This document shows positions 1 through 40,091 of a DNA stretch of 40,159 nt, piece by piece; within the stretch, counting starts at the first letter, position 1, and each line of letters starts with the position of its first letter. Location of the stretch: positions 128,001 to 168,159 of IMG/VR virus record IMGVR_UViG_3300029983_000009. The stretch is one strand, 5' to 3'. A program made the translations under genes and the position numbers. This DNA comes from a virus. Its lineage: Duplodnaviria > Heunggongvirae > Uroviricota > Caudoviricetes. Below the pieces are notes generated by a model. It searched no databases. It was not told the origin of the DNA and saw nothing but the letters and a program-made list of their open reading frames with translations.

Positions 1-31
1 TAGCGAAAAATTAGAAGAATATGCAAATTAT

Positions 32-247
32 ATGAATAACTGTATAGAAAACAACTTTGAAAATTTTTCAGAATCAAAATATAATGAATATTTATATGAC
101 ATAAAATACATTATTTTGAATAAATCTGATTATTATAATAGTATAGTAGAATATGCTGAATATCTATTGAAAAACAATAAAATCAGTACCAATATAAGAA
201 AATACAAATTAACAAAAATAAATAATATTAATGAATCCAACAATTAA
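32..247 (+). CDS. hypothetical protein (71 aa)
   Basis: ORF in the six-frame track. An open frame of this length is non-random in ~20% GC DNA. Confidence 0.4.
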   Translation: MNNCIENNFENFSESKYNEYLYDIKYIILNKSDYYNSIVEYAEYLLKNNKISTNIRKYKLTKINNINESNN

Positions 248-2234: not shown

Positions 2235-3453
2235 TTATTTAATAAAAGCAAATACAAGTTTCATTGGACAAACTGGATATAATGCCCATTCAAGAGATTT
2301 CTTTACAGCACTAAGCAAAAAAAATCCTTTGACTATTAGAAATTTTACAGTAGGAAGTAGTTGGAGTGGATTAGGTTCAAAAATGTCAAATGGTAAATAT
2401 GGAGATCCTCACACAAAAGAAAAATATTTAAATAATTATCAAAGAAAATTAATATCTGAGCAATCATTACATTCAGAACCAAAAACAGAAGGATATTATA
2501 ATGGCTTGTGCGATTATGAAATAAATGATGGACTTGATTACTTAAATAAATATAAATCTAATGATATTATAAATATTGTACTTAATGGAAATGATCATCC
2601 ATATTTTCATTGTATTGATAAATATAAAGGATTTAAAATAGTATATAATGCTTGGGAATCAACAACATATGATGATGTTTTTTTTGAATTATTGAAGAAA
2701 TATGATCAATTTTGGTGTCCATCAGAATGGCAACGTAAATGTATAATAAATCAAGGATATCCAGAAGATAAAGTGTTTGTTGTACCTGAAGCTGTGGATG
2801 GTACAATATTCAATCCTGATTATTTCAATTCAAATTTAGATTTGTACAAAGACAATAGATTTAAATTTGTAATGTTTGGTAAATGGGAATATAGAAAATC
2901 TACAATTGAAATAATAGAAACATTTTTAAATACATTTAAAAAAGATGAACCAGTAGATTTAATATTATCGGTTGATGATAATAACAATTCAACTGATGGA
3001 CTCAAATCAACAGAAGATAGGTTATCATATTTTAATCTTAATGATGATAGATTGAAAGTTTTACATTTTGTAGATAGAAATGATTATATAAATTATTTGA
3101 AAAATGGTCATGTATTCTTATCTTGTGCAAGGTCAGAAGGTTGGAATCTTCCATTAATAGAATCTATGGCTTGTGGAACTCCATCAATATATTCTAATTG
3201 TAGTGGTCAATTAGAATTTGCAGAAGGAAAAGGACATCCTGTTAAGATTTTAGGTGAAAAAAAATCTCCTTATTGCTCTGGTAATTATTATGAACCAGAT
3301 TTTGATGATTTATCAAAAGTTATGAGAGATGTATATGTAAATTATTGGAAATATAAAGAAAAATCGATAAAAGAGTCAGAAATAATAAGAAATGAATTCA
3401 CATGGGAAAAATCTGCTGATAAAGCAATTAAAATACTAAATAATATAAAATGA
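2227..3453 (+). CDS. GT-B fold glycosyltransferase (GT1/GT4-like)
   Basis: C-terminal half contains EGWNLPLIESMACGTPSI, the classic 'glycosyl transferases group 1' E-x7-E region, plus a G-rich loop. 408 aa. Confidence 0.7.
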   Translation: MNNYLIKANTSFIGQTGYNAHSRDFFTALSKKNPLTIRNFTVGSSWSGLGSKMSNGKYGDPHTKEKYLNNYQRKLISEQSLHSEPKTEGYYNGLCDYEINDGLDYLNKYKSNDIINIVLNGNDHPYFHCIDKYKGFKIVYNAWESTTYDDVFFELLKKYDQFWCPSEWQRKCIINQGYPEDKVFVVPEAVDGTIFNPDYFNSNLDLYKDNRFKFVMFGKWEYRKSTIEIIETFLNTFKKDEPVDLILSVDDNNNSTDGLKSTEDRLSYFNLNDDRLKVLHFVDRNDYINYLKNGHVFLSCARSEGWNLPLIESMACGTPSIYSNCSGQLEFAEGKGHPVKILGEKKSPYCSGNYYEPDFDDLSKVMRDVYVNYWKYKEKSIKESEIIRNEFTWEKSADKAIKILNNIK

Positions 3454-6587: not shown

Positions 6588-6778
6588 TTTTCTTTTCTTA
6601 ATATTGATTTTGATTCTGAGTAATAATTAACATATTTATCCCTATTTTTAAAAAAATTACAACTTGCTTCATATACAAATCTACGATTATTTTTATTTTC
6701 ATTCCAATATAATCTATATGCTAAATTGTCTAACTCGGATATTCCTGGAATTTTATAAATCTTATCATAATTCATCAA
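6563..6778 (-). CDS. hypothetical small protein (71 aa)
   Basis: ORF. It overlaps the bidirectional terminator hairpin at 6550-6578, so it may be spurious. Confidence 0.3.
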   Translation of the reverse strand: MMNYDKIYKIPGISELDNLAYRLYWNENKNNRRFVYEASCNFFKNRDKYVNYYSESKSILRKEKIKKLSKK

Positions 6779-7239
6779 ATTTCAATATTAATCAGTGACA
6801 TTTCAATTACATTTAATTTTGATATTAAATTATTATGAACTTCTGTTGCTTCTTCAATAGTATCAAAAATCTTAGAATTCATATATTTAATATCAATTTT
6901 ATTATTTTCTCCTGAATATGAAACATATTCAATAGAAATAGTAAATAAAAATTTATCACTATCCATATTAAAATTTGATTTAATAATATGATCAATATTA
7001 TTTGTTCCGTCTTCATTTTTTAAATAATTGACAACATTTCCTGTTGATTTGTTATTACTAATAACATAATTATAAACCATATTCATTTTAACTTTTTGAT
7101 TCATATCACCACTAAACCAATTATAATCATGATTACAATTAAAAAATTTTATAATATTATCAGTTGTTATTTTTTCAATTTTACTAATATTTTTAATTGA
7201 ACTAGTATGTAAAGGTTCCCCATTAATTTTTATCCACAT
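6775..7239 (-). CDS. hypothetical protein, paralog A of a tandem pair (MWIKIN...PLH family)
   Basis: N-terminus MWIKINGEPLHTSSIKNISKIEKIT and C-terminus ...IEMSLINIEI closely match the adjacent ORF. Confidence 0.55.
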   Translation of the reverse strand: MWIKINGEPLHTSSIKNISKIEKITTDNIIKFFNCNHDYNWFSGDMNQKVKMNMVYNYVISNNKSTGNVVNYLKNEDGTNNIDHIIKSNFNMDSDKFLFTISIEYVSYSGENNKIDIKYMNSKIFDTIEEATEVHNNLISKLNVIEMSLINIEI

Positions 7240-7251
7240 ATTGTTATATTG

Positions 7252-7707
7252 TTATATTTTAATATTACTTACTGACATTTCAATATAGTTCATTTTTGAT
7301 AATAAAAAGTCTTGTGATTTTTCAGAATCTTCAAAAGTATCATATATTTCTGATGATATTTTATATATTTCATCATCATTCATTTTTTTATAATTAACTT
7401 CAAATAAAAATTTGTCACTATCCATTTTTATATTTGAATTTTTCCTAATTATATTTTCAGTCAATTCTTCTTTTTCAATATGCCATAGATCACCTGTACT
7501 GTTTTGTTTGGCGTGTTTATATACACGTTCTAATCTTAAACCAAGTTCAGTATTATCAGCAGAATTTCTATAACGCATATCTGATAAATTAAATTTGTGA
7601 TACGCATCATAAAAATTATTAATATCATCACTAGTAATTTTTTCAATTTTACTAACGTTTAAGATTAAACTCATATGTAAAGGCACATCATTAATTTTTA
7701 TCCACAT
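7252..7707 (-). CDS. hypothetical protein, paralog B of a tandem pair (MWIKIN...PLH family)
   Basis: MWIKINDVPLHMSLILNVSKIEKIT ... YIEMSVSNIKI. Preceded by two TAnnTTTG boxes. Confidence 0.55.
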   Translation of the reverse strand: MWIKINDVPLHMSLILNVSKIEKITSDDINNFYDAYHKFNLSDMRYRNSADNTELGLRLERVYKHAKQNSTGDLWHIEKEELTENIIRKNSNIKMDSDKFLFEVNYKKMNDDEIYKISSEIYDTFEDSEKSQDFLLSKMNYIEMSVSNIKI

Positions 7708-16398: not shown

Positions 16399-16719
16399 AT
16401 GAAATATATTAAATCATTTGAAAAAAAATTAACTTTAGAAGAAAAAGACAGAATAGGACATTATGTTATAATAAATCCTATACATGCTACTCCTAATGAA
16501 AGAAAATTTTTTAATAATAATATTGGTAAAATAGTAGGAATAAATATAAATCCAATTGGAAAAGAGAACTTAATAAAAGTAGAATACGATAAAGATATAA
16601 TTCCTTTTAATGTAATATTAGGTAAAGATAATACATATTTAGTTAAAAATTACGAAATAACAAATGAAAATCAAGATGAATTGAAATCTATATTATCATC
16701 AAAAAAATTCAATTTATAA
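16399..16719 (+). CDS. MKxIKTYE...KFN(I/L) family protein
   Basis: MKYIKSFEKK ... KKFNL. Carries the G(D/H)YV small-domain subfamily motif. Confidence 0.6.
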   Translation: MKYIKSFEKKLTLEEKDRIGHYVIINPIHATPNERKFFNNNIGKIVGININPIGKENLIKVEYDKDIIPFNVILGKDNTYLVKNYEITNENQDELKSILSSKKFNL

Positions 16720-17465: not shown

Positions 17466-17813
17466 ATGAAACATATCAAAACATATGAAAATATTAGTAA
17501 TTATGAAATAAAAATAGGAGATTATGTATTAGCATATATTCAAGGATATAGTGGGATGGATGCTAAAGAATTTATGCATTTTATAAATAATAATATTGGA
17601 ATAATTATAGAAATAGAAAATCCTGATAAAAAGTTTGATAATGTATCAATAGAATATAAAAATGTACCTGAAGATATACGTCATCCATGGTTTAGATATG
17701 ATGAAATAAATGATAAAATATTCAAAAAAGTTAGATATGGAAGAATAGTAGCAAACTCTATAAATAAAGAAGATGTCGAAGGAATATTAATGACAAAAAA
17801 ATTCAATATATGA
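17466..17813 (+). CDS. MKxIKTYE...KFN(I/L) family protein
   Basis: MKHIKTYENI ... KKFNI. GDYVLAYI motif. Paralogous to the minus-strand member at 25401..25736. Confidence 0.6.
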   Translation: MKHIKTYENISNYEIKIGDYVLAYIQGYSGMDAKEFMHFINNNIGIIIEIENPDKKFDNVSIEYKNVPEDIRHPWFRYDEINDKIFKKVRYGRIVANSINKEDVEGILMTKKFNI

Positions 17814-18220
17814 TATATATTAAAGAGGATGAAAATACTGATGATAATATGGTTGGATATCCAAATTTGATACCAGGACAAATGTATATGGAAGATGGTA
17901 CAATTTGCTGTTACATAGGTAACAATAATATGTCAAAATATAATTTGGTATTTTTATTATTTCATTATGACAAAACAATAGATAATTATTTTTTCATTGA
18001 ATGGGTAAATTGGTTAAAATTTACTCCTCTTAATATTGATATTAAAGACTATATTATTAAAAATAACGTAGTACTTAAAACAATTGAATCTATAAAAAAG
18101 CATGAATTTTCTGGTAAAGAAAATGGAAATAGTTTAAATTTGATAAAAAATATTTATAATTCATTATTAGATGATATAGACATATCTATGTTTATAAATA
18201 TAAATAAATTTAATATATAA
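17810..18220 (+). CDS. KFN(I/L) family protein with a variant N-terminus
   Basis: MIYIKEDENT ... NKFNI. ATGA overlap with the upstream stop. Confidence 0.5.
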   Translation: MIYIKEDENTDDNMVGYPNLIPGQMYMEDGTICCYIGNNNMSKYNLVFLLFHYDKTIDNYFFIEWVNWLKFTPLNIDIKDYIIKNNVVLKTIESIKKHEFSGKENGNSLNLIKNIYNSLLDDIDISMFININKFNI

Positions 18221-19615: not shown

Positions 19616-20281
19616 ATGAAACACATAAAATATTTTGAGAATATATATGATATAAATAAAGATGAAAATAGACTTTTAACTTTAAGCTATCATGAAAATG
19701 AATTAACTTTACCTATATTTAAAAAATTTCTTGATGAACATAAAAACATTAATATTAATGTTCAAAATGCTGATCGTGGTTGGACTCCTTTATTAATTGC
19801 GGTTAATAATAATGGATTTGAATTTGCTAAAATGCTTCTTGATAGAGGAGCAGATCCAAATATTTTTTCTAATACACCAGAACTTGGAAAATTTCCATTT
19901 GATAATGACTCAGTAATGAAAAAAATGATAGATACTGCACATGAATTAGATCATCAATCTAATGATTTTATAAATGAGTATTGGAATTTTTTAGATACAT
20001 TAATTCCATTTACAGATTTAGATAAACAGACAGAAATTTTCAAAAGAACTCCATTAATTATAGTTGCAGAAAATATAGGAATTAGAATAAATACTGAAGT
20101 TGGTTTAAAATTAATGAAAAATTTTCTGAAAGAAAAACCAAATTTGAGTATAAAAGATAATAAAGATTATGACTTTATAGATCATTTGATTAGAAAATCA
20201 AATTATGATATTATTGAAGAATTAAGTAATGAATTTAATAGTGTTGATTTATTATATAAATCTAAAAAATTTAATATATAA
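19616..20281 (+). CDS. MKxIKTYE...KFN(I/L) family protein carrying ankyrin repeats
   Basis: MKHIKYFENI. Ankyrin signature GWTPLLIAVNNNGFEFAKMLLDRGADPN. The end is KSKKFNI. Confidence 0.65.
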   Translation: MKHIKYFENIYDINKDENRLLTLSYHENELTLPIFKKFLDEHKNININVQNADRGWTPLLIAVNNNGFEFAKMLLDRGADPNIFSNTPELGKFPFDNDSVMKKMIDTAHELDHQSNDFINEYWNFLDTLIPFTDLDKQTEIFKRTPLIIVAENIGIRINTEVGLKLMKNFLKEKPNLSIKDNKDYDFIDHLIRKSNYDIIEELSNEFNSVDLLYKSKKFNI

Positions 20282-20944: not shown

Positions 20945-20985
20945 AAAGATTAGTAATAAATTACTAATCTTTATAAATTTTTAAT
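20945..20985. terminator. bidirectional hairpin between convergent genes
   Basis: AGATTAGTAA-taaa-TTACTAATCT followed by a T-rich tract. Confidence 0.45.
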
Positions 20986-22194
20986 CAATTCTTTAAAATG
21001 TTTATCAAATATAACTTTAACTTTATCATAATTAGACTTAGAGCATACTATTGAATCATGAACAGTAAATAATACAATATTAGGATACGTTTCATATATT
21101 TCTTTTAATACCACATTAAATATGAAATTACTTTCCATTTTTTGTAGTTCATGAGATAATTCTTTATAATTTTTTTTATTTTCTTTGAATTCTAAAATAT
21201 ATTCATAAACAGATGGATATAATTTCTGAAATATCTTATTCAATTTTTTGTTTGTTTTTAAATTATTACCAAACAATACTTTATACATAAGTTCTTTAGC
21301 TTCATATCTTTCAGTTAACTTAGAATTCTTAATAATATCTTCATATATTAATCCTTCTTTTACTAACTCAAAATATCTTTTCGTGTCACCATTTATTTCA
21401 GATAAATCTTTTTTTAATAGAACTGCAAAGAATAATGGCTGAGAGTTTTTAATGTCAATTTCAGAAATCATCTCATTCTCAATACTCAAATATTGTGTTC
21501 TAATTTCTTTTTTAAGAATTGTAAAATTTGTATGAAATCTACCATAATCATCAAAATTAAAATAAATACTTTTGGAATTTATATTTTCAATTGATATTAA
21601 ATTTTTCTGATATTTAGGCTCACACATTTCTCCGCTTTTTCTTCTATCATTAAGAAGCTTCAATGCACCATCATAATCAATATCAACCTTAGTTAATGAT
21701 TCTATTATTTTTACTCTTATATCTACTTGGATAGAGCTAAAACTCATCTCTGTGATAGATGTTTCATACCTATTATTGATTTTTTTCAATAACATATTAT
21801 CATAGTTTTTCCATCTTAATACATCATATGTATACTCAATATTTAATTTATATGTCTTAGTTTTCTTACCTACACAATAATTAGATACCATGCTCATAAA
21901 TCCTTGCTCACATAAATAATTTATATAATAATTATAATGTTCTCCATATCTTTTTTTTAATATGATTGATGATAATTTAAACTTAGAATCAGTATTATTA
22001 CTAAAATAATATTTGATAATAAGCTCATGTACAATATTAATAAGATATGAGCATTTTAAATTTATACCTTTATATTCTAATTTTTTTTGCTGAGTTAAAT
22101 ACTGAAAGTCCTTTGAAACAAATTGCCAAATATAATCACTAGATTTTGAAACCACTGAATGTAATTTTTTCTTTAATATAGAAGATTTGAGCAT
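20971..22194 (-). CDS. family A (Pol I-like) DNA polymerase, catalytic domain only, with no exonuclease domain
   Basis: 407 aa. Motif A ISEIDIKNSQPLFFAVLLKKD matches Klenow VSADYSQIELRIMAHLSRD. NGDTKRYFE matches EGKDIHRATA. Motif B TERYEAKELMYKVLFG matches SEQRRSAKAINFGLIYG. Motif C LFTVHDSIV matches MQVHDELV. The motifs fall in the order A, B, C with Pol I-like spacing. Confidence 0.6.
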   Translation of the reverse strand: MLKSSILKKKLHSVVSKSSDYIWQFVSKDFQYLTQQKKLEYKGINLKCSYLINIVHELIIKYYFSNNTDSKFKLSSIILKKRYGEHYNYYINYLCEQGFMSMVSNYCVGKKTKTYKLNIEYTYDVLRWKNYDNMLLKKINNRYETSITEMSFSSIQVDIRVKIIESLTKVDIDYDGALKLLNDRRKSGEMCEPKYQKNLISIENINSKSIYFNFDDYGRFHTNFTILKKEIRTQYLSIENEMISEIDIKNSQPLFFAVLLKKDLSEINGDTKRYFELVKEGLIYEDIIKNSKLTERYEAKELMYKVLFGNNLKTNKKLNKIFQKLYPSVYEYILEFKENKKNYKELSHELQKMESNFIFNVVLKEIYETYPNIVLFTVHDSIVCSKSNYDKVKVIFDKHFKELIKNL

Positions 22195-24879: not shown

Positions 24880-25404
24880 TTATATATTGAATTTATCAGC
24901 ATTTAATATATATGATAATTCTTTTTTTACATTAGAACTAAAATTGTCTGAATATTTTTTATAATATTCTTTAAATTTTGATAAATCTGTGAAATTAGAT
25001 ACTACTTCAATTATTTTATTATCCAATTTATCAATCAAATCAGGTTTATAATATTTATAAATTTTATCCTCTATCTTAAATATTGAATTTCTATTAACTT
25101 GTGTAGAAGAATTAATATTTTTTTCTTTAATAAATTTATCTATATTATTGTAAAAACTATTTTTATCAGAATATGAATTATTTATTCCAATAAGATTATT
25201 GAAAATTGTTCTATATTCAAATCTATCGTATTCTAGTTCAGATAAAGTTAAGATATCAATTTTATCTAAAATGTTCAATTTTTTTATATAATCAGTCATA
25301 AAATCAGTGAGTAAATTATCTTCTTCTGTAGTTAAATATTTATATTCTGAGCGTTTATTGTAATCAGATGACTCTCTTCCTTCAAATGTTTTTAAATATT
25401 TCAT
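24880..25404 (-). CDS. MKxIKTYE...KFN(I/L) family protein
   Basis: MKYLKTFEGR ... ADKFNI. Confidence 0.55.
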   Translation of the reverse strand: MKYLKTFEGRESSDYNKRSEYKYLTTEEDNLLTDFMTDYIKKLNILDKIDILTLSELEYDRFEYRTIFNNLIGINNSYSDKNSFYNNIDKFIKEKNINSSTQVNRNSIFKIEDKIYKYYKPDLIDKLDNKIIEVVSNFTDLSKFKEYYKKYSDNFSSNVKKELSYILNADKFNI

Positions 25405-25736
25405 ATATTAAATTTTTTTGTTTCTAACTTCATTTTTAATTCCTCAATTGTTTTACTATGTTCAACTATTCTACGAATATCAAAATTTCTTGTACATAAA
25501 TCATTTTTAATATTAAAATAACTTTTTATACTTTCAGGTACGTCATCATATAATACATAAATATCAGTATTTTTATGCCTATTATCAATACTGTATATTT
25601 TTCCAATCGTACTATTTATAAAATTTTCTATATCTGTCAGTTTTTGAGTATACTTAGATATATTAATTTTAACTAATACATAATCTCCAACTGTTAATTC
25701 ATCTTCTATATTTTCATAAAATTTAAAAATTTTCAT
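25401..25736 (-). CDS. MKxIKTYE...KFN(I/L) family protein
   Basis: MKIFKFYENI...GDYVLV... ending TKKFNI. ATGA overlap with the downstream member. Confidence 0.55.
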   Translation of the reverse strand: MKIFKFYENIEDELTVGDYVLVKINISKYTQKLTDIENFINSTIGKIYSIDNRHKNTDIYVLYDDVPESIKSYFNIKNDLCTRNFDIRRIVEHSKTIEELKMKLETKKFNI

Positions 25737-25833: not shown

Positions 25834-26061
25834 ATGAAAAAGAAGGCAATAATTTTAATCTCGGTTATGATTGGATATCCTATCATTGGTTGTTTAATTG
25901 GCGCATTAATGTATTCATTTACAGGTGCATTATTAGGATTTTTATTAGGTGTAGTATTAGATTTTATTTTTATGGAAATGTTAAAATGCATAACTCATGG
26001 AGAAAAACTATATGAAGAATATGAAAACATTGGTAGTACATCCAATCGACAGAACGACTGA
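25834..26061 (+). CDS. small two-helix membrane protein (75 aa), holin-like topology
   Basis: Hydrophobic stretches IILISVMIGYPIIGCLIGALMY and LLGFLLGVVLDFIFM. A TATATTTG box lies at 25788-25795. Confidence 0.4.
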   Translation: MKKKAIILISVMIGYPIIGCLIGALMYSFTGALLGFLLGVVLDFIFMEMLKCITHGEKLYEEYENIGSTSNRQND

Positions 26062-26551
26062 TTCTTTATCTGAAATTTACAAAGGAAAAGATTGGAAAAT
26101 CATTAGATCAATACCGTCAAAATCTGAACTCAAGAGATTAATAAAATCTCATGATAGAATTATTATGATGGGACATGGTTGTCCTAATGGATTATTGTCT
26201 GCTGATAAAAAAAGACTTATTATTGATTCAAGCATGGTTCAATTTCTTAGAGATAAACAGTGTATTGGAATATGGTGTTATGCTGACCAATTTTTCAGAA
26301 AATATAAAATTCCATACGCATGTACAGGAATGATAATTTCTGAATATGATGAAGCTATAGATAATTGTATAAGTTGTTGTTTGAAAGATATTGATGATTC
26401 AAATGAAAAATTTGCTAAAACAATAGCAGAAAATATAGATAATGATTTATTTATTGATTTAGTTATTGAAAATTATAAAATTGAATTGAATCCGATCGTA
26501 GAATTCAATTCAAAAAACATATTTAAATGGAATAATGGCTATTATTATTGA
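25997..26551 (+). CDS. hypothetical protein (184 aa)
   Basis: ORF that overlaps the preceding small membrane-protein gene in another frame. Confidence 0.45.
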   Translation: MEKNYMKNMKTLVVHPIDRTTDSLSEIYKGKDWKIIRSIPSKSELKRLIKSHDRIIMMGHGCPNGLLSADKKRLIIDSSMVQFLRDKQCIGIWCYADQFFRKYKIPYACTGMIISEYDEAIDNCISCCLKDIDDSNEKFAKTIAENIDNDLFIDLVIENYKIELNPIVEFNSKNIFKWNNGYYY

Positions 26552-26560
26552 AAATTAAAA

Positions 26561-27337
26561 ATGAAATTACAAGAAATTACTAATAAAATAATAAAAAGAA
26601 TATCAGAATATATAGATTTTGACGTAAATGAAATATTTGATCAGTCAGATTGTATCACCATATATGGAGGAGCAGTTAGAGATAGTATAGCAGAACTTGA
26701 AATACATGATATAGACATACTTTGTATGCCAAAATCATCAGAGAAATTGAGAAATTTTTTAATTGATTATAAAAATTATAAAATTCTAGATTTCTATGAT
26801 ATTGATACATTAAACATGTACAAAGGAATTTCAATAATTCAAAATCCATGGACATTAATAAATAAAAATAATAAAATAATTCAAATAATTAGACCAAAAT
26901 TTGGGGACGCACGATTTCAGAATGCTGATGAACTTTATAAAACTGCGTATTATTCTCTAATTAAAAATGTTGATTTATCTTGTTGTGGAGTTTTTATTGA
27001 AAAAAAAAATAATATAATATCACTCAAAGAATCATGCAAAAATTCTATTGTTCAATGTATATCAAAAACATTTGAAATTAATAAATGGGCAACTTTATAT
27101 AATAGTGATAGAACAAATTTCAGAGAAGATAAGTTAATCAGAAGAGGATGGATTAATTTAAATCCTGATATATATTATTCAGCATCAAATAAAATTAAAA
27201 GAAATAAAATAAAATTAAAATATCAAAGAATGATGAAAATAATTTTATTAGAATTAGAATTTGAATACGATTATAAAATATGGACAGATGAGGAATATAT
27301 TAAATATTTAATGTTTTCTCTTCCTACTCCATTTTAA
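26561..27337 (+). CDS. Pol-beta-type nucleotidyltransferase with the GGAVRD head motif, like a CCA-adding enzyme or poly(A) polymerase
   Basis: IYGGAVRDSIAELEIHDIDIL gives GGAVRD followed nine residues later by DID. This is the signature of the class II tRNA nucleotidyltransferase head. 258 aa, shorter than full CCA enzymes. Confidence 0.5.
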   Translation: MKLQEITNKIIKRISEYIDFDVNEIFDQSDCITIYGGAVRDSIAELEIHDIDILCMPKSSEKLRNFLIDYKNYKILDFYDIDTLNMYKGISIIQNPWTLINKNNKIIQIIRPKFGDARFQNADELYKTAYYSLIKNVDLSCCGVFIEKKNNIISLKESCKNSIVQCISKTFEINKWATLYNSDRTNFREDKLIRRGWINLNPDIYYSASNKIKRNKIKLKYQRMMKIILLELEFEYDYKIWTDEEYIKYLMFSLPTPF

Positions 27338-27362
27338 AATAAATAAATAAATAAAATAAAAT

Positions 27363-27677
27363 ATGAAAACAAAATCAGAAATAATTAAAGAAGAAATTGA
27401 ATTAAAGAAAAAAGAACTTGAACAATTAGAAAAAGAGGAAAAATTAGAATTACGACACTCAGTTATTAAAGATTTATCTGAATATACAACACAAGAAAAA
27501 TGTGATTATTTTGATAAAATATACAATCGTGCAGAACTAGTGTTAAAGTTAGCTGAAGAAGAATCAGATGAAGAAGACACTGATCGTGATTCATGGGAGA
27601 AAATGATGGAAACATTAGCAAGAGATACTGAGTCATTTTGGACTTATTATAATAATATATTTGAAGGAGACGAATAA
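27363..27677 (+). CDS. coiled-coil acidic protein, paralog 1
   Basis: MKTKSEIIKEEIELKKKELEQLEKEEKLEL...SFWTYYNNIF. Paralogous to the next ORF. Confidence 0.5.
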   Translation: MKTKSEIIKEEIELKKKELEQLEKEEKLELRHSVIKDLSEYTTQEKCDYFDKIYNRAELVLKLAEEESDEEDTDRDSWEKMMETLARDTESFWTYYNNIFEGDE

Positions 27678-27680
27678 AAA

Positions 27681-27989
27681 ATGAAAACAGAAATAGAAAG
27701 TCTTAGAGCAGAAATTGAAAGAAAGAAAGAAGAACTTGAACAATTAGAATTACAAGAAAAATTAGGAGTTAAAGGATTATCAATTAAAGATTTATCTGAA
27801 TTTACAGATTTTGAAAAATGTAATTTTTTTGATTATTTATATAAATCATCATTAGACAGATTAAATAATACAATAGAAAATGAATATGAAGACGATGATG
27901 ATGAACATTATGCATGGGAGGAATGTATGTTAATACTAGCTCGTGATAAAGATTCTTTTTGGACTTATTATAATAAATTAATAAAATAA
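27681..27989 (+). CDS. coiled-coil acidic protein, paralog 2
   Basis: MKTEIESLRAEIERKKEELEQLELQEKLGV...SFWTYYNKLIK. Confidence 0.5.
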   Translation: MKTEIESLRAEIERKKEELEQLELQEKLGVKGLSIKDLSEFTDFEKCNFFDYLYKSSLDRLNNTIENEYEDDDDEHYAWEECMLILARDKDSFWTYYNKLIK

Positions 27990-28029: not shown

Positions 28030-28065
28030 ATAAAAGTCAATCATTTTTGATTGACTTTTTTTTTA
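28030..28065 (+). terminator. hairpin plus T9
   Basis: AAAAGTCAATCA-tttt-TGATTGACTTTTTTTTT. Confidence 0.55.
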
Positions 28066-30211: not shown

Positions 30212-30421
30212 ATGGACATTGAGACTGAAAAAATATTCAATGAAGTAAAAAAAATTATTCCTACATTAAATATCATCATTACTTATGATACTGGAATAAT
30301 ATTAATTGAAAATAATCTCATATATTCAACACAAGGTCCTATGACTGAAAAATTTATACAATGTTATCTATATGGATTATATGAAGGAATAATAGGAGGA
30401 CTTAAACACACAAAATATTAA
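30212..30421 (+). CDS. small protein, paralog 1 (MDIETEKI...IYSTQG family)
   Basis: Tandem pair with the next ORF. Shared motif NIIITYDTGIILIENNLIYSTQG. Confidence 0.5.
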   Translation: MDIETEKIFNEVKKIIPTLNIIITYDTGIILIENNLIYSTQGPMTEKFIQCYLYGLYEGIIGGLKHTKY

Positions 30422-30424: not shown

Positions 30425-30646
30425 ATGAACGTAGAAACTGAAAAAATAATAACTGATATAAAAGAGGTAATATCATCATTAAATGTTATTATTACTGGTA
30501 ACACTGGAATAATATTGATAGACAACAAACTTATATATTCAACCCAAGGTGATGTGACAGATCAACTTATTCAAAGTTATTTATCTGGATTACATAGAGG
30601 AATATTAAGTGGAATGAAATATCAAAATAACCAAAAAATTAAATAA
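30425..30646 (+). CDS. small protein, paralog 2 (MNVETEKI...IYSTQG family)
   Basis: NVIITGNTGIILIDNKLIYSTQG. Confidence 0.5.
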   Translation: MNVETEKIITDIKEVISSLNVIITGNTGIILIDNKLIYSTQGDVTDQLIQSYLSGLHRGILSGMKYQNNQKIK

Positions 30647-31794: not shown

Positions 31795-31866
31795 TTCTCA
31801 CACCAGGAATCGGACCTGGATTATTTGTTCCAAAAACAAATGTAATAGCCTTTATACCATATGAGA
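31795..31866 (-). tRNA. tRNA-like gene, anticodon UUG (Gln) read by eye, with an atypical T-loop (C55)
   Basis: Minus strand reads TCTCATA/TGTGAGA acceptor, 3-bp D stem, anticodon stem TTTGT/ACAAA with loop TTTTGGA, and T arm CCAGG-TCCGATT-CCTGG. 72 nt cloverleaf. Confidence 0.45.
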
Positions 31867-31874
31867 ATGTATTG

Positions 31875-31945
31875 TTGTTCATGAAAGGATCAAACTTTCT
31901 CTCCAAAATCCAAATTTTTGTGTGCTATCTTTACACCAATGAACA
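31875..31945 (-). tRNA. tRNA-like gene, anticodon UUG (Gln) read by eye, with a non-canonical T-loop
   Basis: Perfect 7-bp acceptor TGTTCAT/ATGAACA. Anticodon stem CAAAA/TTTTG with loop ATTTGGA. T arm GAAAG-TTTGATC-CTTTC. Confidence 0.4.
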
Positions 31946-31955
31946 ATATAATTTG

Positions 31956-32040
31956 TCGCCTTAGTGGGGTTCGAACCCACAAGCTCATATGAGCATCAGT
32001 TTCAAAGACTGACATGTTTAGCCAATTCCATCACAAGGCA
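31956..32040 (-). tRNA. tRNA-like gene with a long variable arm (type II) and apparent anticodon UUG
   Basis: Canonical T arm GTGGG-TTCGAAC-CCCAC. Anticodon stem TCAGT/ACTGA with loop CTTTGAA. Variable-arm hairpin GCTCA-TAT-TGAGC. Acceptor has G-U pairs at both ends. 85 nt. Confidence 0.45.
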
Positions 32041-32054
32041 GTGACATTCTATTG

Positions 32055-32126
32055 TTGCTCTATTAGGATTCAAACCTAAACTGCAGGATCCAGATTCCTG
32101 ATTGCTATCATTACAAACATAGAGCA
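32055..32126 (-). tRNA. tRNA, anticodon CUG (Gln)
   Basis: Perfect acceptor TGCTCTA/TAGAGCA. Anticodon stem CAGGA/TCCTG with loop ATCTGGA. T arm TTAGG-TTTGAAT-CCTAA, which is canonical. 72 nt. Confidence 0.55.
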
Positions 32127-32739: not shown

Positions 32740-33171
32740 ATGAATCATATCAAATCATATAAAATATATGAATCAGAAGGATGGAATAAAGATGTTGACT
32801 GGAAATATGTCATAGAACATCCTGATGATAAAAGTGATGAAGCAAGTTTAATTAGAGATTTACAGGAAAAACTAGATGATGTGATATCTATGTTAGATAA
32901 TTATAACATATTCGAAATTGTTAATATTAAAGGAAATGATTTAGATTATGGTTCTTATGCGATAGTTAGTATATTTGATAAAAACTATAAAATAAGTGAA
33001 GTATATTCAATAGATAAATTATGCATTGAAGATTTTCCAATAAATAATCCTAATGAAGATGAAACAACTGGATATATAGGAGATACAAATGAAATAGCAG
33101 AATTATTAAATATGATTTATAAATCTGGCGGAATGGAAATATACCAATCAATAAAAAAATATAATATATAA
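32740..33171 (+). CDS. family-related protein, tandem paralog 1 (MNHIKSYKIYE...KKYNI)
   Basis: Paralog of the next ORF. Shares EASLI..L.E.LD and FPINN with it. The end is KKYNI. Confidence 0.55.
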   Translation: MNHIKSYKIYESEGWNKDVDWKYVIEHPDDKSDEASLIRDLQEKLDDVISMLDNYNIFEIVNIKGNDLDYGSYAIVSIFDKNYKISEVYSIDKLCIEDFPINNPNEDETTGYIGDTNEIAELLNMIYKSGGMEIYQSIKKYNI

Positions 33172-33175: not shown

Positions 33176-33622
33176 ATGAAGCACTTAAAACAGTATAAAA
33201 TATATGAGGCAGGAGAATGGAGCAGAGGGATTAATTGGGAATATGTCAAAGAAAATCCAGATGATGACAGTGAAGAAGCAAGTTTAATTAAATATTTAGA
33301 AGAAAGATTAGATTATATAATTTCAAATTTAGATGACGATAACATATTAAAAATTGATGATATCAGGGGACATGATTTATATCAAGGTGCTTATGCATTA
33401 GTTAAAATATTTGGGGTAAGATATACTATATGGAACACTGGCGCTCAATCAGGAGGATCAGAAGATACATTATATATTGAAGGATTTCCGATAAATAATC
33501 TTGATGAAGATTCAAATCCTGGATTTATTGGTGTTCCTAATGATATATATGATTTATTGAATTGTATTTATCAAGTTGGAGGAATAGAAATATATAAAAC
33601 AACAAAAAAATATAATATCTAA
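33176..33622 (+). CDS. family-related protein, tandem paralog 2 (MKHLKQYKIYE...KKYNI)
   Basis: See the previous ORF. Confidence 0.55.
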   Translation: MKHLKQYKIYEAGEWSRGINWEYVKENPDDDSEEASLIKYLEERLDYIISNLDDDNILKIDDIRGHDLYQGAYALVKIFGVRYTIWNTGAQSGGSEDTLYIEGFPINNLDEDSNPGFIGVPNDIYDLLNCIYQVGGIEIYKTTKKYNI

Positions 33623-33623: not shown

Positions 33624-34769
33624 ATGAAATATATATATTCATTCAAAGAAATAAATGAATCAAATTTAGAACAAACTAAAAATTATCTTACTATATTATT
33701 TGAAAATGAAAATTGGAAAATTGAAAAAGCTAATTCATTTGAAGCATTAACTGAGTGGTCAGAAGATGGTAATATTAATATGAGTTCATATAAAGGAAAT
33801 TTTGAGAATCTTTTTTTAAATACAAACAAAAAAACTGATGATAAAATAGTATTTGATTTTGATAGAGGTGATTTTTATACATTAGATGACGATAATATTG
33901 ATTTGAAAGAAACAATTGAAGATAATACTGAACTACTAAATTTCTATGGAGAAAATCTTAACTGCAAAAATATTGTTAAAGATGATGATGAATATTGGTT
34001 AGTTATTGATGATTATAAATTCTTTGTTGACTATTTTAAGGTAGATAGCAACACATCAAATGATTTAATATCAACAGTTTTATCTGGTGATTCTTATGAT
34101 ATATTTGATTATCATAATACAGAGTTTAGTATCACTGAAAGCATGAAATTATCTAAAGATAATTTAGATTTAATTAAAATAATACTAGCACTTGAACTAA
34201 TTAATAATGGTTATGATTATGATATTGATGATATTGATGATTATTCTGATGCTGTTGATATAATAGAAGAGAATGAAATGGAAGAATTTAAAGATATTTT
34301 ATTAAATTGTATTCGTTCAGGACATGAATCTGCAGATGCTGATGAGGCTTGGAATGATATAATAAAAGAAGCATATTCATTCTTTAATATATTAAAAGAT
34401 TCTAATAAATGGGAATATCATAATAATAGTAAAGAAAAAATGCTATGGATAAAATTTGAAAATTCAACTGACGCATACAAAGCAAAATTTATAATTAATA
34501 AATATGATGATAGTTATCAAGATGATGTGATTAATTATTCACAACCTTACTATGGTTATACTGGAGACATTAAAAATATAATTGAAACTTTCAATGAAGT
34601 CTTACCAGATAAAATATATGAATATGGTAGTGATACAGTAGATAGAGACGATATTAGTGATTCTTATGATATATTCACAGAACAAAAAGAGAAAAATCCT
34701 GATATAAAAGTATCTGACATAATTGAAAATTTAAAAATGTATTTAGATACTAAAAAATTTAACATATAA
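33624..34769 (+). CDS. KFN(I/L) family protein, large and acidic (381 aa)
   Basis: MKYIYSFKEINE ... TKKFNI. D/E-rich. Confidence 0.55.
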   Translation: MKYIYSFKEINESNLEQTKNYLTILFENENWKIEKANSFEALTEWSEDGNINMSSYKGNFENLFLNTNKKTDDKIVFDFDRGDFYTLDDDNIDLKETIEDNTELLNFYGENLNCKNIVKDDDEYWLVIDDYKFFVDYFKVDSNTSNDLISTVLSGDSYDIFDYHNTEFSITESMKLSKDNLDLIKIILALELINNGYDYDIDDIDDYSDAVDIIEENEMEEFKDILLNCIRSGHESADADEAWNDIIKEAYSFFNILKDSNKWEYHNNSKEKMLWIKFENSTDAYKAKFIINKYDDSYQDDVINYSQPYYGYTGDIKNIIETFNEVLPDKIYEYGSDTVDRDDISDSYDIFTEQKEKNPDIKVSDIIENLKMYLDTKKFNI

Positions 34770-35259: not shown

Positions 35260-35588
35260 TAACAAATTTTAAAATATTTGAAACTAATGATATTCCATAT
35301 TTTTCAGTAGGTGATGAAGTTACTTGTATTGATGATGTACCTTGGATAGATGGAGATAGTGGTTATCCAGTAATAGGAGAGAAATATTTAGTTATTAGAA
35401 TTTACATAGAAAATGAAGATAATAATTACAATATTTATGAAATTGATCAAGAATTCGTAAAAGAATTAAATATAAACACTACTTATGTTGATGTTAAAAA
35501 TATTAAAACTGATATGATATTAAAAAACTGGTGTGCTAGTAGGTTCAATTCAGAAATAAGAACATCATCAAACAAATTTAATATATAA
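35256..35588 (+). CDS. KFN(I/L) family protein (GDEV small-domain subfamily)
   Basis: MITNFKIFETND ... SNKFNI. Confidence 0.55.
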   Translation: MITNFKIFETNDIPYFSVGDEVTCIDDVPWIDGDSGYPVIGEKYLVIRIYIENEDNNYNIYEIDQEFVKELNINTTYVDVKNIKTDMILKNWCASRFNSEIRTSSNKFNI

Positions 35589-35652: not shown

Positions 35653-36987
35653 TTAGAATTTACCTTTCTTTAAGTCAAATGGCTTACCACCTTTCAACAT
35701 ATCTTTTGAATTTTCTTTCTTCTTTTCCCCACCTGATGGAATTTCTGCTCCTAATTTTTTAACATCAGGATAAATATTATTTTCTGCATCAGTATTAAAA
35801 TTAACATTGAAATAATCTTTGAAATTTAGTAAGTCATTATTTCTCAATAAATACTCACGATTAACTTTTAATATATTATCTAAATAAATTGACATTTTAT
35901 CTACATCACGGTTAAACATTTCTAATGTTTTATCATTAAAAATTCCGATTGGTTTCTTTAATTTCTTATTAAATGAACTCAAAATAAGCTTAAATATATA
36001 TTCAATTTTATCATCAGATTTTATATACTCAATAGTTTTATCATTTTTCAATAAAAACGTATTAATTTTAAATTTATCTTCTGAGAAAAATGTAGGAATT
36101 GATAAATTCCAATCCTTTATCTCTTTAGTAATATTCTCTACATAATCATTAAATATAGCTGAAATTAATTCAATATACAATTCTTCTTTTGTTATTTCTT
36201 TAAGCTTAACTTTTTCAAAACTAATAAGTTGTATAAACTCTAAAAAATTTAATAATATTAATGAATAATTCTCTAAGTAATCTGTTTTACTATCAAGATT
36301 CATTTTTTCATATGATGGATTTAATATTTCAAATGAAAATTCATCATTATTATTAATTCTAACTATAATTTTTTCTAAATTGTCATTGAATCCATCCATT
36401 AAAAAAGAATTATTCAATTGTGGATTTAATATCTTATAGAAAAAAAATGCAAAGTTAGATTCTCCATACACATACTCTAAATCTTCTTCTGATGTGTGTA
36501 GGAACAAGTTAATCACTTCTAACTGCTTCTCGTTCAATTTACCTTTAAATATGACAGGTAATGAATCAACATTGAATAATTTAGCATATTCTAATATCTC
36601 ATTATAATCATATTTATATTTTGTACCTTTAACTATACAAGTTAAAATTAAATTGTTCTTTGGAATTTTTTTATATTCTATATTACCTGGTTGATTATCT
36701 GGAAAGTACTCAAAACAAAACCACCAATTTTTTGATAGTAAGTTAGTTACAAAATCGGGCAAAGTATATATATATTGAAAAACATTATTATAATATTTTT
36801 GAATAGCCAAATCTACAAAATTTAGATCTGTATTACTTATTGATTTTGGTCTAATTAAGAATTTATTTCCATCCCATTTTACAAAAATTTGAGATCCTTG
36901 AATATCTTCATATATTAGCAATTCTTTATCTTTTAATTGACTTATTAAGTCATCAGGCTGATTGTTTAGTTTAATTATTTGAGTCAT
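35653..36987 (-). CDS. putative RNA ligase 1 (T4 RnlA)-like nucleotidyltransferase
   Basis: 444 aa. N-terminal LIYEDIQGSQIFVKWDGNKFLIRPKS resembles the T4 Rnl1 segment [25 protein letters not shown], which carries a KxDG-type motif I. Basic G/K-rich C-terminal tail. Downstream motifs were not confidently identified. Confidence 0.35.
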   Translation of the reverse strand: MTQIIKLNNQPDDLISQLKDKELLIYEDIQGSQIFVKWDGNKFLIRPKSISNTDLNFVDLAIQKYYNNVFQYIYTLPDFVTNLLSKNWWFCFEYFPDNQPGNIEYKKIPKNNLILTCIVKGTKYKYDYNEILEYAKLFNVDSLPVIFKGKLNEKQLEVINLFLHTSEEDLEYVYGESNFAFFFYKILNPQLNNSFLMDGFNDNLEKIIVRINNNDEFSFEILNPSYEKMNLDSKTDYLENYSLILLNFLEFIQLISFEKVKLKEITKEELYIELISAIFNDYVENITKEIKDWNLSIPTFFSEDKFKINTFLLKNDKTIEYIKSDDKIEYIFKLILSSFNKKLKKPIGIFNDKTLEMFNRDVDKMSIYLDNILKVNREYLLRNNDLLNFKDYFNVNFNTDAENNIYPDVKKLGAEIPSGGEKKKENSKDMLKGGKPFDLKKGKF

Positions 36988-37857: not shown

Positions 37858-38154
37858 ATGAAAATGATATACGATGAAAGAGAAACTAGCACAGCTAAAT
37901 ACATGAAAAATAGGACTGCATTGGGTGAATTATATAAACAATGTATTTCTTATGGATTAGATAATTGTGGTCCATTATGGATGGATTGGATGGATGCAGG
38001 TGATCAATTTACAAAAATCTCATATGATTATGATCACGGAGTTAAATTTAATCAAGAAACATTAACCAATTTATATAATATGAAATTACCAGAAAATCTA
38101 TTATTAGTTAAAAGAATAATAAAATTAACAAGACTTGGAGTTGAGAGCAATTAA
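37858..38154 (+). CDS. hypothetical protein (98 aa)
   Basis: ORF. Confidence 0.45.
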   Translation: MKMIYDERETSTAKYMKNRTALGELYKQCISYGLDNCGPLWMDWMDAGDQFTKISYDYDHGVKFNQETLTNLYNMKLPENLLLVKRIIKLTRLGVESN

Positions 38155-38896
38155 AAACAAATATTTAGAATTTACTCCTGAGTGGAGTGGATTTAGCATA
38201 AGATATCATATTGCAGGATATTTTGATCCAAAACCAATTCTTCAAATATATTTTATTTGGGGTAAATTATTTATATATTTTCCATGGAGACATTATAAAA
38301 AAGTAGAAATAGAGAAAAACATTAAAGACATTAGAAAAAATAAACTATCCGCATTATCTGGTAAAAAAACAAAAATAGAAATAAAATACATTAAGAAACT
38401 ATATGATCAATGTAGTGCTCCAACATATGGTATATATTTTTTTGATAAGCAATGTTGGATATGTCATGGAAACGAAAACAAATGTTTTGAATTACCTTGG
38501 TATTATACTTGGATAAGAACTAGTTGTTTAGCTAAAGATAAAACTTGGTACAGTGAAACAAGAAAAAAAAGAAATATGGAATTTTGGAATGAACCAAAAT
38601 GGAAAGATATTATTTTTTCTGAAACATATCCTTATAAATATACCACAGAATACGGAGACGAACAATATTGTAATGCAACAATTAGAGTAGAAGAAAGAGA
38701 ATGGAGATGGAAATGGCTCACCTGGTTGAAGTATTATAGTTTAATAAGGAAAGACATTGCAATAAGATTTAGTGATGATATAGGCAATAAAAAAGGTACC
38801 TGGAAAGGTGGCACAACAGGATGTAGTTATACAATGAAAAAAGGTGAAACTCCATATGACACATTAAAACGAATGGAGCTTGAAAGAAAATTTTAA
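38135..38896 (+). CDS. hypothetical Trp/Tyr-rich protein with a Cys cluster (CWICHGNENKC)
   Basis: ORF, 253 aa. Confidence 0.5.
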   Translation: MELRAIKNKYLEFTPEWSGFSIRYHIAGYFDPKPILQIYFIWGKLFIYFPWRHYKKVEIEKNIKDIRKNKLSALSGKKTKIEIKYIKKLYDQCSAPTYGIYFFDKQCWICHGNENKCFELPWYYTWIRTSCLAKDKTWYSETRKKRNMEFWNEPKWKDIIFSETYPYKYTTEYGDEQYCNATIRVEEREWRWKWLTWLKYYSLIRKDIAIRFSDDIGNKKGTWKGGTTGCSYTMKKGETPYDTLKRMELERKF

Positions 38897-38918: not shown

Positions 38919-40091
38919 ATGATAATTAAATTCAAAATATACGAGAAAAAGGCAACGCCAGAATATTATAGTTTTTATGAAGATTTCAAATCTATACTTG
39001 ATGTAAATCACTATATAAATATTCTAAAAACAAAGAATATAACAGAATATGAAGAAGATAGATTATTATATTTTGCTTGTAGAGAGCTTCCAGAATTATC
39101 AGTTAAATTAGTTGATTATATTCCTACAAAAACATTTTCAAAAAATAACTCAGCAGTTGCTGAACTTCCTTATAATTATTTTAAATCTATATTAAAAAAT
39201 GATAATATTTATAACGCATTAATAAATAATTCAGAATTTTTTAGTAATCTTGTATATCACAATTCAGATGTAAAAAATTTTAAATTATTAAAAGATTTAG
39301 GAGCAACATTCAATCAAGATTTATTAATGACAGCTTGTTTTAAAGGTAGTTTAGATATCGTTAAGTTTTTAATTAGCACAGGATTAGATCCGAACAAAAA
39401 GAAAGATGCTACATTTTCAAGAGCACCAGAAAATTGTATGGATTATGCAACAAAATATAATGATAATTATAATGTAATAAAATATCTTGTTGATTTAGGT
39501 GTTCCAGTAACATATAGACACATTTATAATGTAATACAAAAAGGAAATTTAGATGCAGTACCTTATTTAGTAAATTCTAAAAATTTAGTAGAAGATTATT
39601 CATTTTCTTCATATGCTACACATTCAGAAGATAAATATCAATATACATTAAGTAGTTTAGTTTCATTAATGTTAAGTAAGAATTTAAATAAATATGTAAA
39701 AATAATACTTGATAAACAAAAAGATGAAGGTTATAATATATTACAAGGATTACCTTTTGAGTATTATAATAAAGATAAAATTTTAAATACAAAATATTTA
39801 GAATTAGCATATCGTATTATAAGTAATTATGATGGTAAATATGAAAATTCATTCACTACTGAATTCATAACTAATTACAATGAAAAGTTTTGGCTCAATA
39901 AAATGAAAAAAAATCCATCTATAATATCAAAATTAAGATGTCTTGATTTTAGTATATTAAAATCATATGATTATCAGAAAATAATATTAGAATATGATAT
40001 AGATAATTTAAAACACATCAAAAATATTTTAAATCCTAAAATAGAGAAAGAATTTGATTATTTAATAAACACAAGTAAATTTAACATATAA
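38919..40091 (+). CDS. KFN(I/L) family protein carrying ankyrin-like repeats
   Basis: MIIKFKIYEKK. Ankyrin-like LMTACFKGSLDIVKFLISTGLDPN. The end is TSKFNI. Confidence 0.55.
   Translation: MIIKFKIYEKKATPEYYSFYEDFKSILDVNHYINILKTKNITEYEEDRLLYFACRELPELSVKLVDYIPTKTFSKNNSAVAELPYNYFKSILKNDNIYNALINNSEFFSNLVYHNSDVKNFKLLKDLGATFNQDLLMTACFKGSLDIVKFLISTGLDPNKKKDATFSRAPENCMDYATKYNDNYNVIKYLVDLGVPVTYRHIYNVIQKGNLDAVPYLVNSKNLVEDYSFSSYATHSEDKYQYTLSSLVSLMLSKNLNKYVKIILDKQKDEGYNILQGLPFEYYNKDKILNTKYLELAYRIISNYDGKYENSFTTEFITNYNEKFWLNKMKKNPSIISKLRCLDFSILKSYDYQKIILEYDIDNLKHIKNILNPKIEKEFDYLINTSKFNI

Follow-up and report, generated by a model that had tools for sequence, protein, structure and literature searches.

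The 40,159-nucleotide stretch of viral DNA analyzed here (positions 128,001 to 168,159 of the IMG/VR record IMGVR_UViG_3300029983_000009, hereafter 'the window') encodes, among 71 open reading frames (ORFs), a compact nucleotidyltransferase of 258 amino acids (aa). Our conclusion, to which we give a probability of roughly 0.55, is that this protein is a stand-alone, template-independent and probably active enzyme, as far as activity can be predicted, reduced to the head and neck of class II nucleotidyltransferases, and that it is encoded by an accessory gene and belongs to the Gad2/phrog_1614 superfamily. Its family, phrog_1614 and the N-terminal catalytic domain of the anti-Gabija protein Gad2 all belong to a large virus-borne superfamily of minimal nucleotidyltransferases. 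A first-pass annotation had instead suggested that the gene might encode a CCA-adding enzyme which, with a nearby cluster of tRNA genes and a putative Rnl1-like ligase, would form a tRNA-centred repair or counter-defence module. The present analysis guards against the tempting mis-annotation that a CCA-adding enzyme plus an RNA ligase equals a tRNA repair module; the locus is otherwise an ordinary accessory-gene region, and the protein a new member of a known, mechanistically unexplained kind.

A nucleotidyltransferase reduced to head and neck

The translation of the ORF contains ...ITIYGGAVRDSIAELEIHDIDIL..., in which GGAVRD occupies residues 36-41 and is followed by D50-I-D52, with D50 at +9 from D41; ORF, positions and spacing were correct in the first-pass description of a compact Pol-beta-type enzyme with GGAVRD and, nine residues on, DID. 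G36, G37, R40, D41, D50 and D52 of this motif A are conserved at 98-99% among 244 homologs, so the signature is no chance match, and they align with GGAVRD...DxD of the human, Escherichia coli and Bacillus CCA enzymes. Conservation of at least 95% across the same 244 aligned sequences extends from these six residues to Y87, P96, Q108, I110, P112, D138, E157, R184, R188 and K191. At the place of CCA motif B, D138 is found in 100% and V137 in 97% of the homologs, and both motif B arginines are missing; hhalign pairs this V137-D138 segment with FDFT of Gad2, while the comparison with RRDLTINALA of E. coli was made by eye. A neck helix (R184 to W197) stands in place of the templating motif D of CCA enzymes (EDxxRxxRxxRF), of which E and D are not conserved. 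Asn occupies residue 95 of the window protein (26843..26845), a position held by Glu in 85% of the 244 members ('IxEPWT') and by D, Q or L in close relatives.

The family is large. Close homologs number 132 at E <=1e-3, with up to 96% identity, and a profile search of 1.84 billion proteins yielded 636 clusters at 50% identity, mostly of 200-260 aa; ten longer members (283-407 aa) contain no informative extra domain. The structure predicted with high confidence for the 258-aa protein (predicted local distance difference test score, pLDDT, of 90.5) has the head-and-neck fold of class II enzymes. These data directly support the reality of the gene, its fold and the conservation of its motifs, and they agree with the earlier description of a class II (CCA/poly(A)-type) head that has no body or tail domains and whose substrate may differ from tRNA.

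For catalysis and acceptor, we infer the following scheme. The GG/RD residues would bind the triphosphate of a nucleoside triphosphate; D50 and D52, with D138 and/or residue 95, would hold Mg2+; and a nucleoside monophosphate would be transferred to the hydroxyl of an acceptor. By analogy with the fold, the most probable acceptor is a nucleic-acid 3'-OH, and for this reason tRNA may be a substrate. The gene would thereby serve an accessory function, either as an aid against host immunity or in the takeover of host processes.

Kinship with Gad2 and phrog_1614

Gad2 is a 400-aa anti-Gabija protein of phage SPbetaL7, a predicted nucleotidyltransferase that is toxic when expressed (bioRxiv 10.1101/2023.05.01.538930). 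A profile of nine sequences, Gad2 and eight diverse homologs taken from the supplementary tables of that study, was compared by hhalign with the profile of the 244 family sequences, and the two matched at 95.2% (E 2.9e-8) over 150 columns. This alignment covers residues 12-199 of the window protein and 11-162 of Gad2, and sets GG, DxD, Q108, D138, E157 and the R188-K191-R195-G196-W197 helix opposite the corresponding elements of Gad2. When the family profile was compared with a similarly diverse profile of CCA heads and necks, it reached 51% (E 1.5e-4) over 42 columns, which comprise motif A only; likewise, the family hidden Markov model gave 22.6 bits to Gad2 versus 8.7 bits to the E. coli CCA enzyme. 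Since the match extends over 150 columns with Gad2 and over motif A only with CCA enzymes, the GGAVRD protein groups with the non-tRNA families Gad2 and phrog_1614, a placement that the first-pass annotation had itself held to speak against its proposal.

The connection to phrog_1614 comes from both sides. The Gad2 homologs match their own PHROGs 18122, 27100 and 4400 strongly and phrog_1614 weakly, and phrog_1614 covers nearly the full length of two members of the window family (P0112, E 6e-5; P0120, E 3e-6). In the BFVD database, the small fold of the window protein recurs in numerous short proteins of phages and giant viruses (Foldseek probability 1.0, TM-scores of 0.4-0.57). These family relations are directly supported, and their interest is that a large huge-phage family, the 636 clusters mentioned above, has a Gad2 catalytic core that is structurally the head and neck of a CCA- or A-adding enzyme, which points experiments toward nucleic-acid 3'-OH acceptors.

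A bolder proposal, which we hold to be improbable, is that Gad2-type phage nucleotidyltransferases, the window protein included, are stripped-down class II enzymes that tail RNA or DNA 3' ends and thereby defeat host immunity; their targets could be a contested tRNA such as tRNA-Gln or the DNA ends to which Gabija-like systems respond. If it were true, the head-and-neck similarity would offer the first concrete, testable mechanism for the Gad2 family, and the nearby all-Gln tRNA cluster would be part of the same arms race.

Why the protein is probably not a CCA-adding enzyme

The curated models for CCA enzymes do not recognize the window protein. Pfam PolyA_pol (PF01743) scored 16.1 bits, under its 23-bit gathering cut-off, and the NCBIfam CCA equivalog NF009814 15.2 bits, against a cut-off of 290; PHROGs 1614 and 2244 were reached at E ~0.007 through motif A, and CCA enzymes in a PDB profile search at E 0.3-2. 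Sequence methods pick up motif A only. The body and tail domains that bind tRNA were not found in the 258-aa protein, nor was PF12627, which is present on nearly all retrieved CCA homologs and never in the nucleotidyltransferase family. In the family alignment, RRD of motif B is replaced by (K)N-V-D138 and EDxxR of motif D by R184-x3-R188, position 183 varying among D, E, T and N; the corresponding motifs of the E. coli CCA enzyme are RRDLTINA and EDPLR. From the work of Li et al. in 2002, RRD is said to serve ribose recognition, and EDxxR to be the amino-acid template for C and A. Domain architecture, the missing RRD and EDxxR, the curated thresholds and the profile comparison led us to reject the CCA-adding identity that had been suggested at first pass. 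For the CBASS CD-NTases and the MenT-AbiEii group, neither a match to a defence model nor a closest fold match was obtained with the window protein.

No conserved tRNA-repair module

The distances on which the module idea was built are accurate: 4.46 kb from the end of the nucleotidyltransferase gene to the tRNA cluster (given as about 4.5 kb) and 3.5 kb from the cluster to the ligase-like ORF. What had been overlooked is that the tRNAs and the ligase-like ORF lie on the minus strand and the nucleotidyltransferase on the plus strand, with ~20 unrelated ORFs between them. Nor does the window supply the expected repair enzymes: no Pnk, HAD phosphatase, RtcB or other RNA-repair family was found among its 71 ORFs, and the pnk-like kinase/phosphatase foreseen for the module is absent from them.

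A sample of 24 nucleotidyltransferase loci and 83 ligase-like loci (designated by L-numbers), each with at most 10 kb of flank, was searched for the nucleotidyltransferase, the ligase-like gene and tRNAs. No partner gene is conserved across these loci, and the lack of conserved linkage is thus a direct observation. The ligase-like gene is near the nucleotidyltransferase only in the closest relatives of the window: on shared contigs the two are 8.3 kb (window), 10.5, 44 and 295 kb apart, the spacings of 44-295 kb being those of relatives with 50-60% identity. tRNAs occur near the ligase-like gene in 13 of the 83 loci, 10 of which are the window's own close relatives, and in 0 of the ~48 loci of the ligase-like clade of ~50% identity. 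The three elements are therefore neighbors by shared ancestry of close genomes, not a conserved functional unit, and the linkage behind the tRNA-centred module is lost as the genomes diverge.

One might still hold that the three act as a single toolkit for tRNA repair or counter-defence, as all are within 10.4 kb in the window and similarly placed in its closest relatives (L005 and contig 3300029983_000007). Given their different strands and the unrelated ORFs between them, the lack of the catalytic lysine in the ligase-like protein (see below), the absence of Pnk and the loss of linkage and of tRNAs just described, we regard this as very improbable.

Two candidates for a partner of the nucleotidyltransferase were examined and rejected. 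A conserved upstream gene is contradicted by the upstream genes of five lineages, which are unrelated (L001, L002, L012 and L014 among them). The other candidate was a true minimal ligase of 212 aa with motif I AQPKLNG, found in L001, L014 and L017-L021, whose gene is convergent with that of the nucleotidyltransferase and not operonic. Small true ligases with intact motif I in relatives (212-228 aa with AQPKLNG; 209 aa with EKRDG and a PF09414 RNA_ligase match) lie 0.5-2.7 kb off on the opposite strand, and the window has no copy.

A ligase fold without the catalytic lysine

The second protein of the supposed module, a putative Rnl1-like ligase of 444 aa, retains part of its first description. 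Its model shows a ligase-type covalent nucleotidyltransferase fold followed by an all-helical C-domain, as in Rnl1 and Trl1; an active ligase, in contrast, is not what the motifs indicate. The protein has 1,491 homologs, the best 120 at 58-94% identity, and 175 distinct ones (32-94% identity) were aligned. The strand-loop-strand of motif I reads L-I-Y-E27-D28-I-Q30-G31-S, compared with V-A-R-E-K35-I-H-G-T in T4 Rnl2, and position 28, where the motif I lysine had been sought, is D in 170 homologs, E in 3, N in 1 and a gap in one; it is never K. The literal 'KWDG' at residues 37-40 is not conserved, residue 37 being R in 94 homologs, N in 39 and K in 38. Motif V, as assigned here, is S218-F-E220-I-L222-N223 instead of KxK, the lysines being replaced by Glu and Leu, while two glutamates, the motif III-like E93 and the motif IV-like E205, are conserved in the family. 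The register of motif I rests on the pattern and on predicted secondary structure, and the strand-loop-strand of the model fits it; hhalign against Rnl2 motif III and against an EKLDG ligase gave the same register in alignments that are not significant. No ligase match was obtained by sequence in Pfam, PHROG, NCBIfam or the PDB. We conclude that the 444-aa protein is quite probably not a ligase, and draw attention to its gene as a highly conserved core gene of these huge phages whose product has the ligase fold but no catalytic lysine.

Some relatives of the gene have other associations. In L015 (LR756500, 2962..4923), a distant homolog with 32% identity, whose motif I reads E-N-L-D-G, carries at its C-terminus an NMNAT-type cytidylyltransferase-like domain (GRFQPFTLGH; PF01467 at 1.8e-7). 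Ahead of it, at 1665..2930, is a 421-aa ORF that has a true EKLDG motif. Within one subclade, the ligase-fold gene adjoins PncA-like, NadE and PncB genes of nicotinamide adenine dinucleotide (NAD) salvage; L007 (7959..12098) and L057-L064 are further loci with associations of these kinds. A link of the protein to NAD was considered from this one fusion and this one subclade, and was not adopted, as other clades have neither. In 44 of 46 loci of the clade of ~50% identity (L067-L113, about 11.3-12.8 kb), a gene for ~410 aa follows the ligase-fold gene on the same strand after 12-555 bp; the window has a homolog of this gene (20971..22194, minus strand; 41% identity, E 9e-73) 13.5 kb away. This ~410-aa family has no Pfam match, and a PDB profile search with a 407-aa partner found nothing; its invariant motifs (GRxHTN, ExDIxNSQP, K..Y.V.FG and T.HDSI) presumably recall those of family A polymerases.

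Counter-defence context

The window carries a homolog of Acb3, described as an inhibitor of CBASS CD-NTases (bioRxiv 10.1101/2025.07.23.666291), 10.8 kb from the nucleotidyltransferase. An Acb3 gene overlaps the nucleotidyltransferase gene at its end in L002 and L003, and the third gene upstream of the nucleotidyltransferase in L012 is a NADAR gene. Two DNA methyltransferases and a glycosyltransferase of 'conflict-system' type in the window belong to the same context. The Acb3 and NADAR neighbors, each found in single lineages, are suggestive of a counter-defence context. Of the counter-defence idea in the first-pass annotation, what survives as plausible is that which follows from Gad2 kinship, the Acb3 homolog of the window and the adjacency of the two genes in one lineage; the route through tRNA repair does not. 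The Acb3 homolog is followed by an ankyrin-repeat protein (38919..40091, plus strand), and a second ankyrin protein is encoded elsewhere in the window.

Weighing the alternatives

Several observations weigh against a Gad2-related, template-independent enzyme with an accessory role. Precomputed matches to Pfam PF26128 'Gad2' are listed for ~45 of 120 homologs, which speaks for the kinship, but those inspected were graded weak or faint; local Pfam scans, in a copy that seems to lack this model, gave no match to it. The window protein and five family members, when scanned, had no match to Gad2 PHROGs 18122, 27100 and 4400, the same six proteins matching phrog_1614 only, and the window protein itself reached phrog_1614 at E 0.006 through motif A only. 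Judged from these comparisons, the window protein is kin to Gad2 at the superfamily level, via phrog_1614, and is not a strict Gad2 member. As late as 2026, Gad2 was listed without a known mechanism (PMC12904381), so that no function can be transferred from it. If residue 95 is a third metal ligand, the Asn of the window protein may or may not alter activity. Acb3 was not seen in the other ~20 nucleotidyltransferase loci, and its adjacency is confined to one lineage. Finally, the closest solved structures are all tRNA or RNA 3'-end enzymes, none of the four window tRNAs encodes its 3' CCA, ~5 of 17 distinct lineages have tRNAs at most 10 kb from the nucleotidyltransferase, and the L024 homolog sits inside an array of 16 tRNAs.

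The CCA-less tRNAs and the L024 array, together with the class II signature GGAVRD...DxD and the tRNAs near the gene in L016/L023 and L017, would suit a minimal tRNA 3'-end nucleotidyltransferase (CCA- or A-adding, or a repair enzyme) that matures the phage tRNAs or mends 3' ends damaged by defence systems. We consider such an enzyme unlikely: the tRNA-binding body and tail domains and PF12627 are lacking, RRD and EDxxR are missing, the equivalog score is 15 versus 290 bits, likeness to the CCA profile is confined to motif A, and at most of the homolog loci no tRNA lies within 10 kb. To our knowledge, a host CCA enzyme is nearly universal in bacteria, which also counts against it. Similarly doubtful is a host-directed toxin or shut-off factor that would add nucleotides to the 3' ends of host tRNA or RNA and so, like MenT, prevent charging or translation, or act by RNA tailing. 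Its fold would be appropriate, resembling that of RNA 3'-end enzymes, and relatives are indeed harmful: SPbetaL7 Gad2 is toxic in bacteria (bioRxiv 10.1101/2023.05.01.538930), and the Gad2-family nucleotidyltransferase of phage Emajogi is cytotoxic when overexpressed. These toxicity data, however, come from distant relatives only, the PADLOC AbiEii/MenT models gave no match, and no conserved antitoxin-like partner is adjacent. Less probable still is an acceptor other than nucleic acid (a small molecule, a nucleotide second messenger or a protein hydroxyl), by which the enzyme, like LnuA/ANT or AMPylators, would inactivate a host immune signal or protein. The size of the protein is close to that of single-domain LnuA/ANT-type enzymes and there are anti-defence genes in the neighborhood, but the neck helices and the best structural matches point to class II RNA enzymes, for which Z is clearly higher (11-12.7), and no match to ANT or Lnu families in Pfam or NCBIfam rises above noise. 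A stand-alone class II-type head-and-neck enzyme of the Gad2/phrog_1614 superfamily is the reading that we prefer.

Gene neighborhood and tRNA genes

The 184-aa ORF upstream of the nucleotidyltransferase is probably co-transcribed with it. It is kept beside the nucleotidyltransferase only in close relatives, L016 and L023 having a copy of 88% identity immediately before that gene; it contains the pattern '...IIMMGHGCPNG...IGIWCYADQF...', and its match to Peptidase_C50 is very weak (E 0.044). Downstream of the nucleotidyltransferase are two paralogous ORFs of ~103 aa (48% identical). The 184-aa ORF, the nucleotidyltransferase and these paralogs seem to form one transcription unit, ended by a terminator-like hairpin; three terminator-like sites were found in all, compared with 0.3 expected, while in a promoter scan the count was not above chance.

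The number of tRNA genes recovered in the window depends on the method: two by ARAGORN, three at the Rfam gathering threshold and four in Rfam E-value mode. The four clustered Gln tRNAs have four different bodies, all of which begin with U1, and that at 32040..31956 combines a class-II-like variable arm of 13 nt with the anticodon UUG. C34 and U34 toggle at orthologous positions (the first tRNA, t1, is CUG in the window versus UUG in L005, and t3 is UUG versus CUG), and three Gln tRNAs are kept in a relative with 58% identity. The all-Gln cluster could serve codon supply in a genome of 22% G+C, or provide decoys or resistant variants against a tRNA-Gln-directed nuclease. In other relatives, tRNAs with a CUA anticodon occur (designated 'Pyl' by ARAGORN; L012 10555..10627; L057/L063); they would act as amber suppressors, a hint that some of the related huge phages recode stop codons. 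The ORFs of the window read normally in code 11.

Origin of the window and other observations

The G+C content of the window is 21-27%. Family scans identified a gp32-like single-stranded DNA-binding protein, two DNA methyltransferases, a glycosyltransferase of 'conflict-system' type and the ankyrin proteins, while many small ORFs had no family match. In the annotated phage collection, the nucleotidyltransferase matches only the 'uncultured phage' assemblies LR745206 and LR756502, and the ligase-like protein only LR756500-LR756504 and LR745206; these assemblies are 462-735 kb long. Metagenomic homologs of both proteins lie on contigs of up to 711 kb, and relatives encode a Gp23-like major capsid protein. 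The window therefore derives from a huge T4-like phage.

Small ORFs of the window often form tandem pairs of paralogs (27363..27677/27681..27989, 30212..30421/30425..30646, 32740..33171/33176..33622 and 6775..7239/7252..7707). Many otherwise dissimilar ORFs share the ending ...K-F-N-I/L-stop (3' ends of 15 ORFs) and many start with MKHIKxYE. The DNA motif AAATTTAATWTATRA occurs 18 times in the window, compared with 2.6 expected, a count that 0 of 100 shuffles reached. The shared ends could point to multigene families whose termini are conserved, or to a conserved element, either at gene junctions or as a C-terminal tag. The phage relative L005/L006 encodes, at 1..1537, a 757-aa Cas3-like HD nuclease-helicase (HD, ResIII, DEAD and Cas3-like_C_2); in this near-identical relative the gene lies ~8.5 kb past the right end of the window.

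Table 1. Coordinates of the features discussed (window positions unless a locus is named)
Feature	Position	Strand	Size or remark
Stand-alone nucleotidyltransferase, class II-type head and neck (Gad2/phrog_1614 superfamily)	26561..27337	+	258 aa
Motif A, G36-G37-A-V-R40-D41...D50-I-D52	26666..26716	+	Predicted triphosphate/metal-binding signature
V137-D138-L-S-C-C-G-V	26969..26992	+	Counterpart of CCA motif B 'RRDhTxNA' and Gad2 'FDFTVCMGA'
Neck helix, R184-x3-R188-x2-K191-L-x2-R195-G196-W197	27110..27151	+	Like Gad2 'RVQKYxxKGY'
ORF 10 bp upstream of the nucleotidyltransferase	25997..26551	+	184 aa; no family hit
Terminator-like hairpin	28032..28059	both	Closes plus-strand unit 25997..27989
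Four tRNA genes, Gln-type anticodons CUG, UUG (13-nt variable arm), UUG, UUG	31795..32126	-	
tRNA clusters in relatives	L005 17487..17821; L016 14733..15067; L017 3469..3703		
Acb3 homolog (inhibitor of CBASS CD-NTases), anti-defence gene	38135..38896	+	Pfam PF25187, 1.5e-41, 143 bits versus cut-off 27
Ligase-fold protein: N-terminal nucleotidyltransferase-like domain, helical C-domain, Lys-rich tail	35653..36987	-	444 aa
E27-D28-I-Q30-G31, counterpart of Rnl2 motif I E-K35-I-H-G	36895..36909	-	Asp at the position of the Lys that accepts adenosine monophosphate
Small true ligases in relatives	L001 9212..9850; L014 8155..8841 and 2579..3208; L017-L021	- (L001, L014)	
K-F-N-I/L-stop ORF ends (examples)	16705..16719, 17799..17813, 18206..18220, 20267..20281, 25401..25415(-), 34755..34769, 35574..35588, 40077..40091		

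Comparison with known systems

The ligase-fold protein shares its arrangement of an N-terminal nucleotidyltransferase domain and a helical C-domain with T4 Rnl1 and fungal Trl1-LIG; compared with these and with T4 Rnl2, it has Asp for the Lys of motif I, and Glu and Leu for the lysines of motif V.

As for the nucleotidyltransferase, its motif A, GGAVRD...DxD, is identical to that of the class II tRNA nucleotidyltransferases (the A-adding enzyme 3wfo and the CCA-adding enzymes 3h37 and 1miv) and of E. coli poly(A) polymerase (3aql). The window protein differs from them in having no body or tail, (K)NVD for RRD and RxxxR for EDxxR, and its 258 aa compare with ~370-480 aa for usual CCA enzymes. 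A stand-alone head domain of a CCA enzyme is known from a bacterium, Streptococcus pneumoniae NP_344798.1 (PDB 2la3), but it does not have neck helices matching R184-W197. Similar in size to the window protein are the phrog_1614 'nucleotidyltransferase' proteins and the short viral 'poly A polymerase head domain' proteins, which are virus-encoded and ~170-330 aa long; examples, at modest TM-scores (0.4-0.57), come from Pectobacterium phage PP2, Caulobacter phage Cd1, a pithovirus and a klosneuvirus.

Gad2 and the window family are both phage-borne and have the nucleotidyltransferase core in common. The elements that they share are GG...(I/V)(N/H)D(I/V)D, the Q in an 'xxQxI' strand, (F/V)D(F/L)(T/S)xC, the E in 'HED/KES' and RxxK(Y/L)xx(K/R)G(Y/W). 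R-D of GGxVRD is missing from most Gad2 proteins, whereas it is kept in the window family, and the 400-aa Gad2 of SPbetaL7 has an extra C-terminal half that the window protein does not possess; the Gad2 family, however, also includes members of 214-228 aa that consist of the nucleotidyltransferase only.

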